DNA from: Candidatus Sungiibacteriota bacterium
Lineage (GTDB): Bacteria > Patescibacteriota > Minisyncoccia > Sungbacterales > JACQCQ01
DNA: 64,000 bases
Reading direction: 5' to 3'
Assembly (NCBI GenBank): GCA_016201505.1
Contig: JACQCQ010000002.1
Coordinates: forward strand, 76,750 to 140,749
Shown here: positions 50,676 through 58,294 of the stretch, one piece after another
Numbering within the stretch: the first letter of the stretch is position 1
How the letters are laid out: every line of letters begins with the position of its first letter
The notes under the pieces: model-generated
The model's input: only the letters and a program-made list of their open reading frames with translations
The model's database searches: none
What the model was told of the DNA's origin: nothing
Made by a program: the position numbers and the translations under genes

Positions 50676-51133
50676 CGTTCATCATGGGGAAGGTCAGTAC
50701 GACTTCCCCTCCACAATTCAGGTACATACAAACATAAGTCGAATCGCAAATGGTTCGGCAGGCTCACCACAAGTGAATCTGTCGAACTTTCTCTCGATGA
50801 TTCTTGAGACTCGTAATTACATTACTTGTCCCGAGCGAAGTCGAGGGATCTCACTCGTTCTCTGATGAATGTCAGAGGACAAGAAAATAAAAAGCGGTTA
50901 TTAAGGGCGCATGGTGGATGCCTTGGCTTTAAACAGCGATGAAGGACGTAGCGTGCTTGCGATAAGCATCGGGGAGGTGGCGAGCAACCTTTGATCCGGT
51001 GATGTCCGAATGGGGAAACCCTAGGGGAGTAATGTTCCCTAACCCGTCGTGTAATAGCGATGTGGAGTCAACCTGGTGAAGTGAAACATCTCAGTAACCA
51101 GAGGAAAAGAAAACAAGTTGCTTCGCAACTTTT

Positions 51134-51203
51134 ATCAGCGAATAGCGAATCCCGTACGAATAAGCGAATTCGTTTATTCGAAAAGATTCGTAATTCGTTG
51201 ATG
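51134..51203 (+). repeat. IVS hairpin element copy A (71 nt)
   Basis: The sequence is atcagcgaatagcgaatcccgtacgaataagcgaattcgtttattcgaaaagattcgtaattcgttgatga. It is identical to the copy at 55191–55261. Confidence 0.75.
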
Positions 51204-51610
51204 ATCGAGCGCAGTGAACATTCCGTCAGTAGCGGCGAGCGAACGCGGAACAGCCTAGAGGAATCAGTTTGCTAGTTTACTAGTTCGCTGGTTCCAGTTG
51301 TAAGTTTAGTTCGTAAAAGAGCAATCTTTTGAAGAGTGTAAAAATTAAGACTTCGTTAGGAGAATGGTCCTGGAACGGCCAACCACAGAAGGTAATAGTC
51401 CTGTACACGAAAACGGTCTTATACTCTTGGAACTTTACTTGAGTACTGCCCAGTATGACGACTGGGTAGGAAGCAGGGAGAACTAGTCTCCCAAGGCTAA
51501 ATATGTTTAAAGACCGATAGTGAACCAGTACCGTGAGGGAAAGGTGAAAAGCAGCCCGGTGAGGGCGGTGAAATAGTACCTGAAACCATGTGCTTACAAG
51601 GAGTCGGAGC

Positions 51611-52110
51611 TCGCTTCGCTGACGAAGCGGTAGATTCAAAATCTTAAAACTGCAAAATCAAATATTTCCTTTTGTGTATCTGAATTGAAAAAATAAGGAG
51701 GTGTCAATGGCATACCCCCAAGATGAAATCGCACGCCTGCGGGAAATGCTGCGGCTTGATCAGATGTCGCCGGAAGAGCTGGTACGGTTTCTTAAACTGT
51801 TTTGGGAGATTACGGAGAGCAAGGTTCTCGAGCGCGGCGCCGAAGGCAAGGATGTCTTTAACGCCGGGTTGGCTGAATGGCTGCTCACGATTGCTGTAGT
51901 TGCCATCGTGCGGTCTTTTATTGATCGCGCTGACAAGAGAGCGATTGTCCGAACCCTCAAAGCCTCGTTACCGGCGAAGATTTGGGAAGTTTGCCGGCCG
52001 CTTTGCGAGCCCTTGCTCTCAATTCCCGGGGAGTGATCCGTCAGCCGACGGACTCCCCGTTCAATTCAGATACATAAAAATAGTTTTGAATTTTGTAGTT
52101 TAGTTTTTAA
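51611..52110 (+). mobile_element. helix-25 intervening sequence carrying a 110-aa ORF, flanked by perfect 12-bp inverted repeat gtatctgaattg / caattcagatac
   Basis: The insertion follows 'cttacaaggagtcggagc', the classic H25 IVS site. The inverted repeats lie at 51682–51693 and 52060–52071. Confidence 0.6.
51707..52036 (+). CDS. hypothetical 110-aa protein encoded inside 23S rRNA IVS (MAYPQDEIARLREML…)
   Basis: It has a strong RBS (AAGGAGG, 5 nt spacer). It is followed by the hairpin gatccgtcagccgacggactcccc. No known homing-endonuclease motif. Confidence 0.45.
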   Translation: MAYPQDEIARLREMLRLDQMSPEELVRFLKLFWEITESKVLERGAEGKDVFNAGLAEWLLTIAVVAIVRSFIDRADKRAIVRTLKASLPAKIWEVCRPLCEPLLSIPGE

Positions 52111-52389
52111 ATTTAGCGACGCGTCAGCGGAGCGAGTAACGGCATGCCTATTGAAGAATGAGCCAACGAGTGTATGGAGATTGCTTGCTTAACCCCGCCC
52201 TTTGCGCAGTAGCGCAAAAGGCGGAACTGACAGTCTACAGTCTACCGACTACAGCAGATGTTGTTGTTCATGCGGTAGTCAGTAGTCCGTGGTCAGTAGT
52301 CCGCCCCTTGTTAGTGAACAAAGGACGGGGGGAGGCGCAGGGAAACCGAGTGTTAACAGCGCGTAAGCACCTCACTTTGTTCGGTGCCT

Positions 52390-52461
52390 ATCAGCGAATA
52401 TCGAATCCAAAACGAATAAACGAATTCGTTTATTCGAAAAAGATTTGTAATTCGTTGATGA
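52390..52461 (+). repeat. IVS hairpin element copy B (~90% identical to A)
   Basis: atcagcgaatatcgaatccaaaacgaataaacgaattcgtttattcgaaaaagatttgtaattcgttgatga. Confidence 0.7.
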
Positions 52462-55261: not shown

Positions 55262-55329
55262 AGCGTGAGCGGAGCAGCTAACGGTCCCAAGCCCTCGTCA
55301 ATGTCAGCGATAACTATAAGTAACGATTG

Positions 55330-56140
55330 TAGTTATAAAATTTGGCTATATGTTCCCAATTTGTCTGCGAGCGTTAGCGAGTGGCTAACAAATCGCAATC
55401 CCGTGGCCTTACAGTCACGAGACAAAACAAATTCGGGAAACCCGAAGTCACGCCGCGCAATACGAAAGTGTTGGTTGCGGGGGAAGGCTTTGGGGACTGG
55501 AAAACCCGCGAATGCAGAAGTACTTCAATACCACGTAGTATTGAAGTAACAATCTTCTGCCGATTCGTGAAGGTAAGATGGATGTATTCCGCTCGCAATA
55601 TGAACGGATGTATCCGCCGAAGCCTTGGCGAAGGCGGACAATCAGCAGGAAAGATTCTAATTGGTAAAAATTAGAAAATCCTCAGAGACTACACGCCAAA
55701 CTCTTCAATGCACTCGAGTCTGTCGAGCTAATTGGATAGATGATATAGTCCGAACTCTATGGTGACATAGAGAGTTGACCCGAGAGAGGGTCAGAGTAAC
55801 ACTAAATGAATCGTTCTAAGGTGAATAACACTGCCTTAGTAAAATCTAGCTATATCGGTGAACACCTTACACTTTAATACTTTAAAGTATTAAAGTGTAA
55901 GACAATACCGAGGCAACCCCGCCAAAATTTTGCACGAGCAAAACTTAGGCGGGTGAGTCCGTAGAGACTACACGCTAGACTCCAATCCGCAGTTGGCGGA
56001 GGAGAAGATATAGTCCGGCCTCTATGGCGACATAGAGAGATGCAGAGAAATCGTGCATCCGGATTCATGATTCATAATTCTTGCTTGCCCTTCCGTAGCT
56101 CTAGAGAGCAAAGGAGGGATTCATGATTCTAGTAACAATT
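55330..56140 (+). mobile_element. ~0.8-kb ORF-less insertion (group I intron-like) at the 23S 1917–1931 (I-CeuI site) region
   Basis: It interrupts 'taactataa | …gcgtaattccttgtcgggtaag'. It contains an internal ~100-nt duplication (55680–55800 versus 55958–56060). It also contains the 36-bp perfect palindrome cttacactttaatactttaaagtattaaagtgtaag (55866–55901). Confidence 0.45.
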
Positions 56141-56903
56141 CGAGCGTAATTCCTTGTCGGGTAAGTTCCGACGTGCACGAAAGGCGTAACGACTGGAGAA
56201 CTGTCTCAACGAGGTGCCCGGTGAAAATACAATATCGGTGAAGATGCCGATTACCCACAGATAGACGAAAAGACCCCGGGAGCTTTACTGCAGCTTGATA
56301 TTGGCAATGAATACTTTATGCGTAGCATAGATGGGAGACTTTGAAGTCGTGGTTTCGGCCATGATGGAGTCGCCAGTGAAATACCATTCTTAAAGAATTC
56401 TTTGTCTAACTTGTAGAGACGAAACTCTATGCAGACAGTGTCTGGCGGGCAGTTTAAGTGGGGCACTTGCCTCCCAAAAAGTAATGGAGGCGTTTATTAA
56501 GGTTGGCTAGCGCCGGATGGAAATCGGCGTCGTCCCGTAAAGGGAAATGCCAGCTTGACTGCAAGGCGGGTATGCCGCGCAGGTGCGAAAGCAGAACTTA
56601 GTGATCCGATGGCTATGGTTGTTTAGTTTACTAGTTTCGGTCTTTATTGACCTACTGGTTTTCTAGTTTTCGAACTAGTTAACTAGAAAACTGGTGAACT
56701 GATCAATTTCTTGCTAGAACAAGGCCAAAGCTCATCAGCTAAAAGCTACCCCGGGGATAACAGGCTAGTCGCTTCCAAGAGTTCATATCGACGAAGCGGT
56801 TCGGCACCTCGATGTCGGCTCGGCTTATCCTGGAGGTGGAGAAGCTTCCAAGGGTTTGGCTGTTCGCCAATTAAAAAGTCACGCGAGCTGGGTTCAAACC
56901 GTC

Positions 56904-57741
56904 AACAAAAGAACCCGAAAATGACATCGAAACATTCAACAAGTTTTTGATAGGAGCTTGTTTGAAACACACGGCGGCCCCTGGTAGCAATGCCGGGGAG
57001 CGAAACCCGTAGAATCCCAAGGGGGTCCGGGTAAGAAAACCGACTCATATCGATGAAATCCACGTATGCATTCAACCTGTCATATGTTAGGATAATATCG
57101 AGGGAAGTCGTGTATGTTGCAATCGTTAACGCAAAATCAAAGGGCATATATTGCAGGTTTTCTTGATGGAGATGGAAGCATTTATGTGCGAGCAAAACCA
57201 AACCCTACTTATCGGTTTGGCTTTCAAATTGCTCCATATATAGTATTTTTCCAGTCACAATCTAGTCAGGAAAGATTTGGGGAGATATGCAAGTTGATTA
57301 GCGTGGGACATTTACGCATTCGAAGTGACGGTATTCTTGAGTACATCATAAATCGTATTGATGAAATCAAGATGTTGCTGGAATGTGTTCGTCCCTTCGC
57401 AATTCTCAAAAGGCGACAGATAGATTTGATGTTGAAAATAATTGAATCAAAGTCGCAAGTAGAGAACGAAGACGATTTTGAGAAACTTCTTCAACTAGTA
57501 AATTCTTATCGAGAATTAAACTATTCTAAGAAGAGAAAGCAACGTTCATTGACCCCGTAGAGACTTGTCGTGAAAGCGGCAGAGTAATTCAGAAATGATT
57601 TGCTAACACGTCGGTCACCCATTAAATGTAGATACTGTTTAATGGGTTGGTGGTATAGTCCAATCCCTCTAGTAATAGAGGAAGGTTAAGCATTTAGTAA
57701 CCTTAATTCTTGACTCTAAATTCTTAATTCTAGTAAACAGC
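56904..57741 (+). mobile_element. group I-type intron at 23S position 2593 (I-CreI homing site) encoding a LAGLIDADG endonuclease
   Basis: The exon junction is 'gggttcaaaccgtc | gtgagacaggttgg', which corresponds to the E. coli sequence AACGTC^GTGAGACAG. Confidence 0.7.
57114..57560 (+). CDS. single-motif LAGLIDADG homing endonuclease, I-CreI-like
   Basis: The motif is 'YIAGFLDGDGSIYVRAKPNPTYRFGFQ'. Overall similarity extends to I-CreI ('LAGFVDGDGSIIAQIKPNQSYKFKHQ…LVLKIIE' versus 'IDLMLKIIE'). Confidence 0.8.
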   Translation: MLQSLTQNQRAYIAGFLDGDGSIYVRAKPNPTYRFGFQIAPYIVFFQSQSSQERFGEICKLISVGHLRIRSDGILEYIINRIDEIKMLLECVRPFAILKRRQIDLMLKIIESKSQVENEDDFEKLLQLVNSYRELNYSKKRKQRSLTP

Positions 57742-58294
57742 GTGAGACAGGTTGGTCTCCTATCTTCTGTGGGCGTAGAAATTTGAGAGGGCTTCTGGAC
57801 AGTACGAGAGGACCTTCAGGAACAAACCTCTGGTGTACCAGCTGTTCCGCCAGGAGCATCGCTGGGTAGCTATGTTTGGTTGTGATAACCGCTGAAAGCA
57901 TCTAAGCGGGAAGCACGCCTCAAGATAAGATTTCATAGATCCCTGAGAGATTATCAGGTTGATAGGGTGCAGGTGTACATGGAGTAATCCATTCAGCCGA
58001 GCACTACTAATAGATCATCACCACTTTTTATTTTCCTTTGCCCGCCGAAGCGTTATGCGACGGCAGGACGGTGAGAATAATACAATTCTTGCCCGCCTAA
58101 GTTTTTCGTTAGAAAAATTTTGGCGGGGTTTATTACCCTTTTGCAGTTATTAGCTTTGAATGTGCGTTTCTCCAAAATAAAACTTGCCGACCTCGAACGC
58201 GCCGGACTCGGCCGCGAGGTCTGAGAGGGAAAGGAGAGCCTCTAAGCTCTTATCCTACCCTCTCTCTAACACCGAGTTTCGTATTTTAAAATTC

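Follow-up and report, generated by a model that had tools for sequence, protein, structure and literature searches.

How does a bacterium come to carry a 23S ribosomal RNA (rRNA) gene whose core of roughly 2.85 kb is spread over about 7.15 kb of DNA, and could such a gene still work? The question is raised by a locus of a Candidatus Sungiibacteriota bacterium, found in a stretch of 64,000 nucleotides of contig JACQCQ010000002.1 (positions 76,750 to 140,749 of the forward strand; assembly GCA_016201505.1), which as a whole is called the window here and to which all coordinates refer. We think it likely that this is a functional Sungbacteria 23S gene, with a 5S gene downstream and no linked 16S gene, which has been accumulating insertions of two mechanistically different kinds, group I introns and long hairpins.

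Using E. coli rrl (L001:1070-3972) as the reference, both in blastn searches and in a global alignment with cheap long gaps, we found that the interval from 50896 to about 58044 contains conserved blocks collinear with E. coli (Ec) 1 to about 2897. Rfam returned a single large subunit (LSU) rRNA match in the window, on the plus strand and starting at 50889 (1220 bits, E=0), the exon boundaries themselves being taken from the E. coli alignment. An initial annotation had read the locus as a mosaic 23S gene, about 60% of it inserted and interrupted at ten points. The alignment bears this out, with inserted sequence summing to about 4.3 kb (60%), and recovers all ten interruptions at offsets from 1 nt (the intron at 2593) to about 20 nt (the inserts at helix 25 and at 2400); one further insert, at Ec~285-291, is added to them. 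The end of the gene, earlier set at 58025, is moved to about 58044 by the helix-1 partner of 50884-50897. In total, one gene holds three group I introns together with about nine inserts of the hairpin type, and ten to eleven inserts are at least about 100 nt long relative to E. coli, including those at 1917, 1931, 2593, helix 25 (H25) and helix 45 (H45). The parts of the gene are as follows, with helix names following the standard E. coli numbering, and with "A element" denoting a palindrome described below.

50896..58044, plus strand: 23S rRNA gene, exons and all insertions (Rfam LSU match, collinear E. coli alignment, core motifs)
51117..51217, plus strand: hairpin insert at Ec~228, with A element copy 1 (51134-51204)
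51269..51354, plus strand: extra sequence of about 80 nt at Ec~285-291, with ACTAG-type repeats
51619..52131, plus strand: H25 insert of 513 nt at Ec 548/549
52183..52328, plus strand: hairpin insert at Ec~595-617, with CAGTCTA / GGTAGTCAGTAG repeat arms
52368..52495, plus strand: hairpin insert at Ec~657-669, with A element copy 2 (52390-52460)
52990..53133, plus strand: H45 hairpin insert at Ec 1164-1185, with A element copy 3 (53020-53106)
53665..55062, plus strand: composite insert of helix 63 (H63), about 1.33 kb
55160..55286, plus strand: hairpin insert at Ec~1866-1887, with A element copy 4 (55181-55251)
55318..55808, plus strand: group I intron of 491 nt after U1917
55809..55822, plus strand: 14-nt exon AAUCGUUCUAAGGU, Ec 1918-1931, the 3' strand of helix 69
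55823..56142, plus strand: group I intron of 320 nt after U1931
56613..56720, plus strand: hairpin insert at Ec~2400-2411, with AACTAG(A/T) repeat arms
56903..57740, plus strand: group I intron of 838 nt after U2593, with a homing endonuclease gene
57114..57560, plus strand: single-motif LAGLIDADG homing endonuclease of the I-CreI / I-MsoI family, 148 aa, inside intron 56903-57740

The identification of the inserts at 1917, 1931 and 2593 as group I introns at classical homing sites is supported by several features of their sequence. Rfam Intron_gpI (RF00028) matches the L1917 intron at 55517-55772 (38.8 bits, E=2.9e-08) and the L1931 intron at 55802-56037 (49.0 bits, E=2.6e-11) in a focused search, and the L2593 intron at 57418-57682 (29.2 bits, E=2.3e-4) in a 9-kb search, and the core motifs AGAGACUACACGC and GAUAUAGUC align to the model, which describes the conserved catalytic core (P3-P9). 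All three introns are preceded by U and have G as their last base. Their junctions, together with the internal guide sequences (IGS) of the first two, were read directly against E. coli: the 5' exon AACUAU ends at U1917 and faces an IGS, GUAGUU, 14 nt inside the L1917 intron and able to form P1, and CUAAGGU, ending at U1931, has the complementary IGS GCCUUAG. At the third site the exons join as AACCGU followed by CGUGAGACAG, with the intron after U2593, and the intron-less site is CAAACCGTCGTGAGACAGGTTGG. The earlier view of a single unit in the 1917-1931 region, and of two introns at group I sites overall, was right about the insertion and the sites and wrong about the number, since two introns surround the 14-nt exon and the total is three. 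The L1917 and L1931 introns are free of open reading frames (ORFs), and their cores are identical at 70 of 85 positions and therefore paralogous. All three sites match those tabulated for the Candidate Phyla Radiation (CPR) (PMC11270868). The L2593 intron also occurs in four other CPR loci (L039-L042), at the same E. coli position and with 68-71% nucleotide identity; it is the only insert that the present gene shares with these four related 23S loci, in which the other inserts have no homologues.

The ORF of the L2593 intron matches Pfam LAGLIDADG_1 (PF00961) with 36.2 bits, against a cut-off of 23.1, and aligns end-to-end with both I-CreI and I-MsoI (E about 1e-19; E=8.7e-20 for I-CreI in PDB, over residues 11-146 and onto I-CreI residues 10-145). 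The motif FLDGDGS lies near the N-terminus, and there is one motif per chain, the homodimer type. Relatives number 2,301 at E<=1e-10; among 120 of them listed, most are 148 aa long and the named ones all come from CPR genomes, and homologous ORFs occupy the same site (LSU 2593) in the four CPR loci. The enzyme agrees with that of the Chlamydomonas reinhardtii chloroplast LSU intron (I-CreI) and with Monomastix I-MsoI in insertion site and in its single-motif, homodimer-type architecture, but the present host is bacterial (CPR), and the predicted enzyme shares roughly 30-35% protein identity with an engineered I-CreI-derived chain. Both I-CreI and I-MsoI occupy this 23S site, which for I-CreI is U2593, consistent with our E. 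coli alignment. A CPR relative at a different site, I-ShaI, has been shown to be active (PMC11270868). Judged by homology, the LAGLIDADG ORF is the only demonstrable gene in the inserts: the proposal that inserted ORFs encode proteins holds for it, which alone has homologues, and fails for the two others tested, an H25 ORF and a 245-aa H63 ORF, which are orphans.

Since these introns lie in helix 69 and beside the peptidyl-transferase centre (PTC), where the chain must be continuous, they would be expected to self-splice. Removal by self-splicing with exon ligation, as in the rest of the family, would restore helix 69 and the region beside the PTC, and the L2593 intron would spread through DNA homing driven by its predicted I-CreI-type endonuclease.

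The inserts that are not introns are long hairpins set on variable helix tips, probably intervening sequences (IVSs) of the RNase III type. The small ones fold at -20 to -73 kcal/mol for 93-157 nt and close on the host helix. Extended stems of the kind that characterizes IVSs are formed at the tips of both H25 (-220 kcal/mol for 525 nt) and H45 (-69 to -73 kcal/mol for 144-157 nt), and in the H63 insert two large blocks are far more stable than shuffled sequence (z=-6.0 and z=-7.3). Two Parcubacteria 23S genes (L040, L041) and E. coli have short plain loops at most of the insert positions, therefore the hairpins are lineage-specific additions to helix tips. The inserts hold no 23S_rRNA_IVP / S23p protein, the non-endonuclease ORFs being without a Pfam match at E<=0.1 and the ORFs tested without one in NCBIfam. 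Of other known RNA families, Rfam gave only weak, chance-level hairpin matches at E<=1, to microRNA models and to BjrC80 (33 bits, where the gathering score is 80).

Several hairpins resemble one another and resemble sequence outside the gene, among it two hairpins upstream.

43321..43395, plus strand: intergenic hairpin with the same type of repeat arms as the Ec~605 insert, directly after the stop codon of ORF 42271-43320
50203..50323, plus strand: leader hairpin with arms of TTAGAAAT-type short repeats, fold -54.8 to -55.9 kcal/mol by the ends taken

The Ec~605 insert and the intergenic hairpin give a local alignment score of 24, against a mean of 7.8 and a maximum of 16 for shuffled sequences; the palindrome that had been said to recur at 43321-43395 is thus related to the insert, and not a close copy of it. 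AACTAG-type repeats of the leader are also present in the Ec~2400 and Ec~288 inserts, the complement of the ACTAG-type repeats of the Ec~288 insert recurs in the Ec~2400 insert, and a 19-nt stretch of the Ec~2400 insert is identical to leader positions 50082-50100. In two Saccharibacteria loci (L005 and L011), intergenic DNA is 88-93% identical over 28-35 nt to one arm of the leader hairpin. From these resemblances, the hairpins appear to be drawn from a stock of repeat-armed palindromes that fills gaps between genes in Patescibacteria, and not to be bespoke extensions of rRNA.

What would become of such hairpins in the precursor? They range from 80 nt to 1.33 kb and sit on variable, putatively surface-exposed helix tips, each closed by a long near-perfect duplex, which RNase III would cut out without religation, as in classical bacterial IVSs, leaving a 23S that is fragmented and may nevertheless function. 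The alternative is that the hairpins are retained in mature 23S as bacterial expansion segments decorating the ribosome surface. Eukaryotic expansion segments ES7, ES15 and ES27 are located at H25, H45 and H63, so that the insertion points here include helices known to bear such segments, and the hairpins of 100-157 nt are simple coaxial extensions of their host helices. Retention would also accommodate the strand bias of folding, as would any constraint at the RNA level: of 11 pre-rRNA segments compared, one of them from the leader and ten from the 23S gene, 10 have a more stable fold in sense than in antisense, and the sense strand has two to three times more G-U pairs, which suggests an RNA-level constraint, though the G-over-C skew of the region contributes. 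However, CPR ribosomes are otherwise described as reduced at the surface (review PMC9698310), the H25 (513 nt) and H63 (about 1,330 nt) inserts carry unrelated cargo with ORFs led by Shine-Dalgarno sequences, the element present as identical copies in two of the inserts lies between genes in other genomes, a pattern that suggests selfish DNA and not tailored structure, and long perfect duplexes are the normal substrate of RNase III, as established for IVS processing (PMC4990558). We therefore regard retention as unlikely, and by analogy with the IVSs of Salmonella, Leptospira and Coxiella (PMC4990558) excision without religation seems more likely.

The identical copies belong to the A element, of which the inserts at Ec~228, ~660, H45 and ~1875 each hold one, a palindrome ATCAGCGAATAGCGAATCCCGTACGAATAAGCGAATTCGTTTATTCGAAAAGATTCGTAATTCGTTGAT of 70-100 nt with the ends ATCAnCGAAT...ATTCGnTGAT. 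The copies at 51134-51204 and 55181-55251 are identical at 71 of 71 positions (E=1.7e-34), and identity stops at the ends of the element; the copy at 52390-52460 is 90% identical to copy 1, and that at 53020-53106, in H45, is diverged and has a different apex. An nhmmer search with an A-element hidden Markov model (HMM) found 4 copies in the window, all within the 23S gene, and none in the rest of its 64 kb. Beyond the window, a 24-nt core of the element was found in GTDB genomes at 10 loci, which belong to Saccharibacteria, Harrisonbacteria and other Patescibacteria apart from one contig that is probably mis-binned, and on 22 metagenome contigs, and on no viral contig; the organism-labelled loci, those in genomes, are almost all from Patescibacteria. 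At all 32 outside loci the whole element and its ends are conserved in unrelated flanks, none of the 32 lies inside an rRNA gene, and most copies with both neighbours readable fill inter-ORF gaps of about 95-110 nt. On one metagenome contig (Ga0210038_1001639; L025:2481-8197), the A-type HMM has five matches, which take up four consecutive gaps between the genes of a co-directional housekeeping operon (RRF, RseP, an aminoacyl-tRNA synthetase, MreB, NusB, S4, RpoA, EF-Tu), an arrangement in a Patescibacteria genome that is like repetitive extragenic palindromes (REP) and bacterial interspersed mosaic elements (BIME).

The A element thus has the many copies, discrete conserved ends and unrelated flanks of a miniature inverted-repeat transposable element (MITE) or REP-like family. 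The complete identity of two copies argues for recent DNA-level copying between rRNA sites, by either transposition or gene conversion, and it is only because copies are identical and their flanks differ that we infer mobility. Rickettsia palindromic elements, REP/BIME, yeast mitochondrial GC clusters and the double-hairpin elements of Allomyces are likewise short palindromes with discrete ends, present in many copies in unrelated flanks and intergenic, and the organellar and Rickettsia palindromes are also tolerated, where the site is permissive, within genes for structural RNA or for protein. The A element differs from the Rickettsia, REP/BIME and organellar palindromes in having no sequence relation to them, and neither a RAYT- or insertion sequence-type transposase nor a target duplication was seen with it. 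To our knowledge, this family is undescribed in Patescibacteria. Directly beside one end of the A element, a second motif, (C)GCTTCGCTCT or the complement of it, is found in several unrelated genomes (L008/L037, L009/L023/L030 and L028) and also in the window at 55160-55180 and 52460-52480, next to two of the rRNA copies; the full A element may be longer and asymmetric.

Could the hairpins instead have formed where they stand, at helix tips, with 7-8-nt repeats multiplying by slippage or by amplification of palindromes? The arms of several of them are visibly tandem short motifs, namely CGAAT(N2-3), AACTAGAA, CAGTCTA and TTAGAAAT; the motif copy number varies between elements, with extra ATTATTCG units in one outside copy (L010), and an origin in place would need neither the target-site duplication nor the transposase that were looked for and not found. 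However, the whole A element with both ends is conserved in unrelated flanks of Saccharibacteria, Harrisonbacteria, other Patescibacteria and this Sungbacteria genome, and two copies in different helices are identical up to the element boundary and therefore not the product of independent slippage. An origin in place is thus quite unlikely, and insertion of dispersed palindromes is preferred.

Several points weigh against the interpretation favoured here, of introns that splice and mobile hairpins that are excised. The scores of all three introns with Intron_gpI (49.0, 38.8 and 29.2), significant as their E-values are, fall below the curated gathering score of 50 bits, and for the L2593 intron a convincing P1/IGS was not identified in the sequence, GGCGG being a tentative candidate found by eye only. 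The restriction of the A element to rRNA was seen in 64 kb only and may not hold genome-wide, its copies show no consistent target-site duplication, and no transposase was found among ten ORFs of the housekeeping contig that were tested. Finally, the hairpins could be retained as expansion segments, and both splicing and RNase III excision are deduced here from sequence.

The two largest hairpin inserts have internal structure of their own, part of which recurs in the 5' leader as a cassette framed by a clamp stem.

50382..50728, plus strand: clamp-stem cassette of the 5' leader (TGTACCTGAATTG ... CAATTCAGGTACA), a 19-nt perfect inverted repeat with exact motif matches
50439-50675: leader-cassette ORF, 78 aa, without Pfam or NCBIfam match
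51670-51689 / 52060-52079: H25 clamp stem, inside an AT-rich outer stem
51707-52036: H25 orphan ORF, 109 aa, with the Shine-Dalgarno sequence AAGGAGG
52028-52052: H25 internal hairpin
53667-53696 / 55014-55043: H63 base stem
53697-53901: H63 branched hairpin
53913-53987: H63 small hairpins
53988-54474: H63 diverged clamp-stem cassette with three small hydrophobic ORFs
54475-55013: H63 GC-rich structured block

The leader (50382-50728) and H25 (51670-52079) cassettes have in common an exact 13-nt terminal inverted repeat, TGTAYCTGAATTG / CAATTCAGRTACA, and a pyrimidine/purine difference between their clamp copies is compensated in the partner arm; the H63 cassette (53988-54474) carries a diverged version of the clamp, with a U-G pair in the sense strand. 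Their interiors are mutually unrelated, and every one of them holds putatively coding ORFs led by Shine-Dalgarno sequences (one of 78 aa in the leader, one of 109 aa in H25, and three of 31, 42 and 40 aa in H63).

As a conserved gene the H25 ORF was rejected, for it matched only itself among 5.8 billion proteins and has no Pfam or NCBIfam match; exhaustive HMMER added two matches, of which one is an artefact caused by the perfect repeats of a 55-aa tandem-repeat protein, and the other is weak and scattered over seven stretches of a large protein with immunoglobulin domains. The 245-aa H63 ORF, on the minus strand, likewise matched itself only, and it straddles the cassette boundary and was judged spurious. 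The tandem H63 ORFs lie at 54035-54130, 54143-54271 and 54268-54390, the last two overlapping by ATGA; each shows, by eye, one hydrophobic helix-like stretch and a purine-rich Shine-Dalgarno sequence, with no NCBIfam match. The GC-rich H63 block (55-61% GC, about 46-50% in the rest of the gene) contains three exact tandem copies of the 13-mer GCCAACTGGTGAA at 54717-54755.

A chimera created by assembly, or a pseudogene in decay, in place of a working 23S is very improbable. In favour of such a reading, identical 71-nt repeats within one gene can mislead assemblers, and Rfam both misplaced the 3' end at 57015 and scored its archaeal model above the bacterial one. Against it, the exon order is wholly collinear with E. 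coli from 1 to about 2897, three independent per-run contigs match at 100% over many junctions, the PTC, the sarcin-ricin loop (SRL) and other core motifs are intact, a processing stem encloses the whole gene with 5S downstream of it, and one rRNA copy is normal for CPR genomes (PMC11270868). The contigs, from Logan assemblies of runs SRR12113409 and SRR12113410, are 100% identical to 51560-52653, 53627-54985 and 56849-57854 and thereby extend across the two ends of each of the H25, Ec~605, Ec~660 and L2593 inserts, and across the 5' end only of the H63 insert. Two partial 23S copies or a chimera, which the initial annotation had named as what would overturn its reading, are ruled out by these contigs together with the collinear exons.

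The surroundings are those of a bacterial rRNA gene with its own precursor.

about 50884-50897 and 58031-58044, plus strand: helix-1 partners of the 23S gene
50174..50204, plus strand: 5' arm of the long-range pre-23S processing stem, pairing with 58127-58157
58127..58157, plus strand: 3' arm of the processing stem, pairing with 50174-50204
58511..58628, plus strand: 5S rRNA gene, 3' of 23S (Rfam RF00001, 67.6 bits)

The arms of the processing stem are 31 nt long, 94% complementary and 7.9 kb apart, and a sigma-70-like promoter match, on consensus only, is located at 49719-49748. In the 64-kb window Rfam found no small subunit rRNA and ARAGORN no tRNA gene; the upstream 50 kb (1-50000) is thus without a 16S or tRNA gene, and the rRNA genes appear unlinked. 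The best-scoring LSU model was archaeal, above the bacterial one, and its alignment was forced to end inside the L2593 intron, 1 kb early, so that the final ~300 nt of the gene (57741-58044) were omitted. Both the archaeal win and the misplaced end are artefacts of the insertions. An archaeal origin is ruled out by the bacterial proteins encoded nearby (SecA, SecD/F, FtsW/RodA and a sigma-70-type protein) and by the names of two hypothetical proteins inside the region, HY220_00715 and HY220_00725, which are recorded on a 211-kb contig of a Candidatus Sungbacteria metagenome-assembled genome, Sungbacteria being a member of the Parcubacteria group within Patescibacteria/CPR.

Elsewhere in the window, a TraG/VirD4-like coupling-protein ORF was noted at 45306-47318, and loop-less perfect palindromes of 36-42 nt were noted in inter-ORF gaps (7314-7353, 48064-48099, 58295-58336, 62264-62303 and 61536-61602), those at 7314 and 62264 having the common core TTCGATAGACT joined to AGTCTATCGAA; these may be further intergenic hairpin families or terminators of the same genome.

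How exceptional is such a gene? Tsurumaki et al. 2024 (PMC11270868) compared 348 CPR 23S genes with that of E. coli K-12 and reported inserts of 100 bp or more in 82% of them, with a maximum of 16 per gene and 5,750 bp in total and a mean total of 1,327 bp (standard deviation 1,112). Group I introns made up 45% of the inserts, LAGLIDADG_1 ORFs clustered at 1917, 1931, 1952, 2593, 2604 and 2657, the H25 and H45 sites had short non-intron inserts that were "probably" IVSs, and some inserts of 500-1,000 bp were of unknown function (PMC11270868). As summarised in PMC9698310, metatranscriptomics by Brown et al. 2015 supported self-splicing of 16S inserts. The present gene agrees with these rRNA insertions (PMC11270868; PMC9698310) in its CPR host, in its many inserts of at least 100 nt, in group I introns at 1917/1931/2593 and a single-domain LAGLIDADG_1 ORF, in short H25/H45 inserts and in long uncharacterised ones, and its totals, about 2.6 standard deviations above the published mean of 1,327 bp (PMC11270868), are within the published range. 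It is thus an extreme but in-range case of a documented CPR trait; its description as unusual and of CPR type stands as regards the host, by the Sungbacteria naming, and as regards bacteria at large, and does not stand within CPR (PMC11270868). The text of PMC11270868 makes no mention of palindromes, hairpins, repeats or MITEs, and in the literature searched we found no description of a dispersed palindrome re-used as rRNA inserts, which is possibly the single new detail here.

Outside CPR, a close parallel is the 23S gene of Coxiella burnetii, which combines an ORF-containing IVS of the RNase III type in helix 45 (PMC4990558) with group I introns. It differs from the present gene in having one IVS and two introns, against about nine hairpin inserts and three introns, and in an IVS ORF of the S23p / 23S_rRNA_IVP family, which has no counterpart here. 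One of the Coxiella introns is located at L1917. With the classical 23S IVSs of Salmonella, Campylobacter and Leptospira in helices 25 and 45, the present hairpins share the H25/H45 tips, the extended stems and a sporadic occurrence among relatives; unlike them, the present gene also uses Ec~228, ~288, ~605, ~660, H63, ~1875 and ~2405 and re-uses one element at four sites, and excision here is a prediction.

A different kind of H45 insert was observed in the related 23S gene of Parcubacteria group bacterium LiPW_15 (GCA_007375645.1, VMER01000004.1; L041:7618-8380), where 762 nt hold five tandem, sense-strand tRNA-like genes (ARAGORN: 7804-7893, 7939-8013, 8040-8118, 8139-8214 and 8248-8323). 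Four of the five score above the Rfam tRNA gathering score (44-66 bits), each appears CCA-ended in the fold, and some of the anticodons are unusual, among them AGG, CUA and one that was read with four bases. The array may consist of real tRNAs nested in an rRNA IVS or of RNase P/Z 'punctuation' that fragments 23S, and our literature search found no description of such an array in an rRNA IVS.

A more general proposal is offered tentatively, as a possibility that we rate on the doubtful side: the short non-intron 'IVSs' of CPR rRNA could be copies of mobile repeat-armed palindromes, one double-stranded RNA module that would act both as an intercistronic element and in the processing or fragmentation of rRNA, and the cassettes could release small ORF-bearing RNAs from the highly transcribed pre-rRNA. 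Such palindromes, the CGAAT hairpin and at least three other types, would normally lie between the protein genes of Patescibacteria and may jump or convert into rRNA helix tips.

As for practical consequences, standard tools mis-annotate this gene, giving an archaeal best model, an alignment short by 1 kb and the hypothetical proteins HY220_00715/HY220_00725 inside rRNA, and insertion-rich 23S genes break assemblies, primers and the taxonomic placement of CPR organisms. For the biology of the group, the locus is a compact case of a single-copy essential gene tolerating two kinds of selfish or neutral insertion, with ribozyme introns in the conserved core and hairpins on surface helices. It connects the uncharacterised short inserts of CPR rRNA with a dispersed palindrome family that elsewhere lies outside rRNA and mostly between ORFs, and if this link is general, it would explain the origin of CPR IVSs and provide a testable model of their processing.

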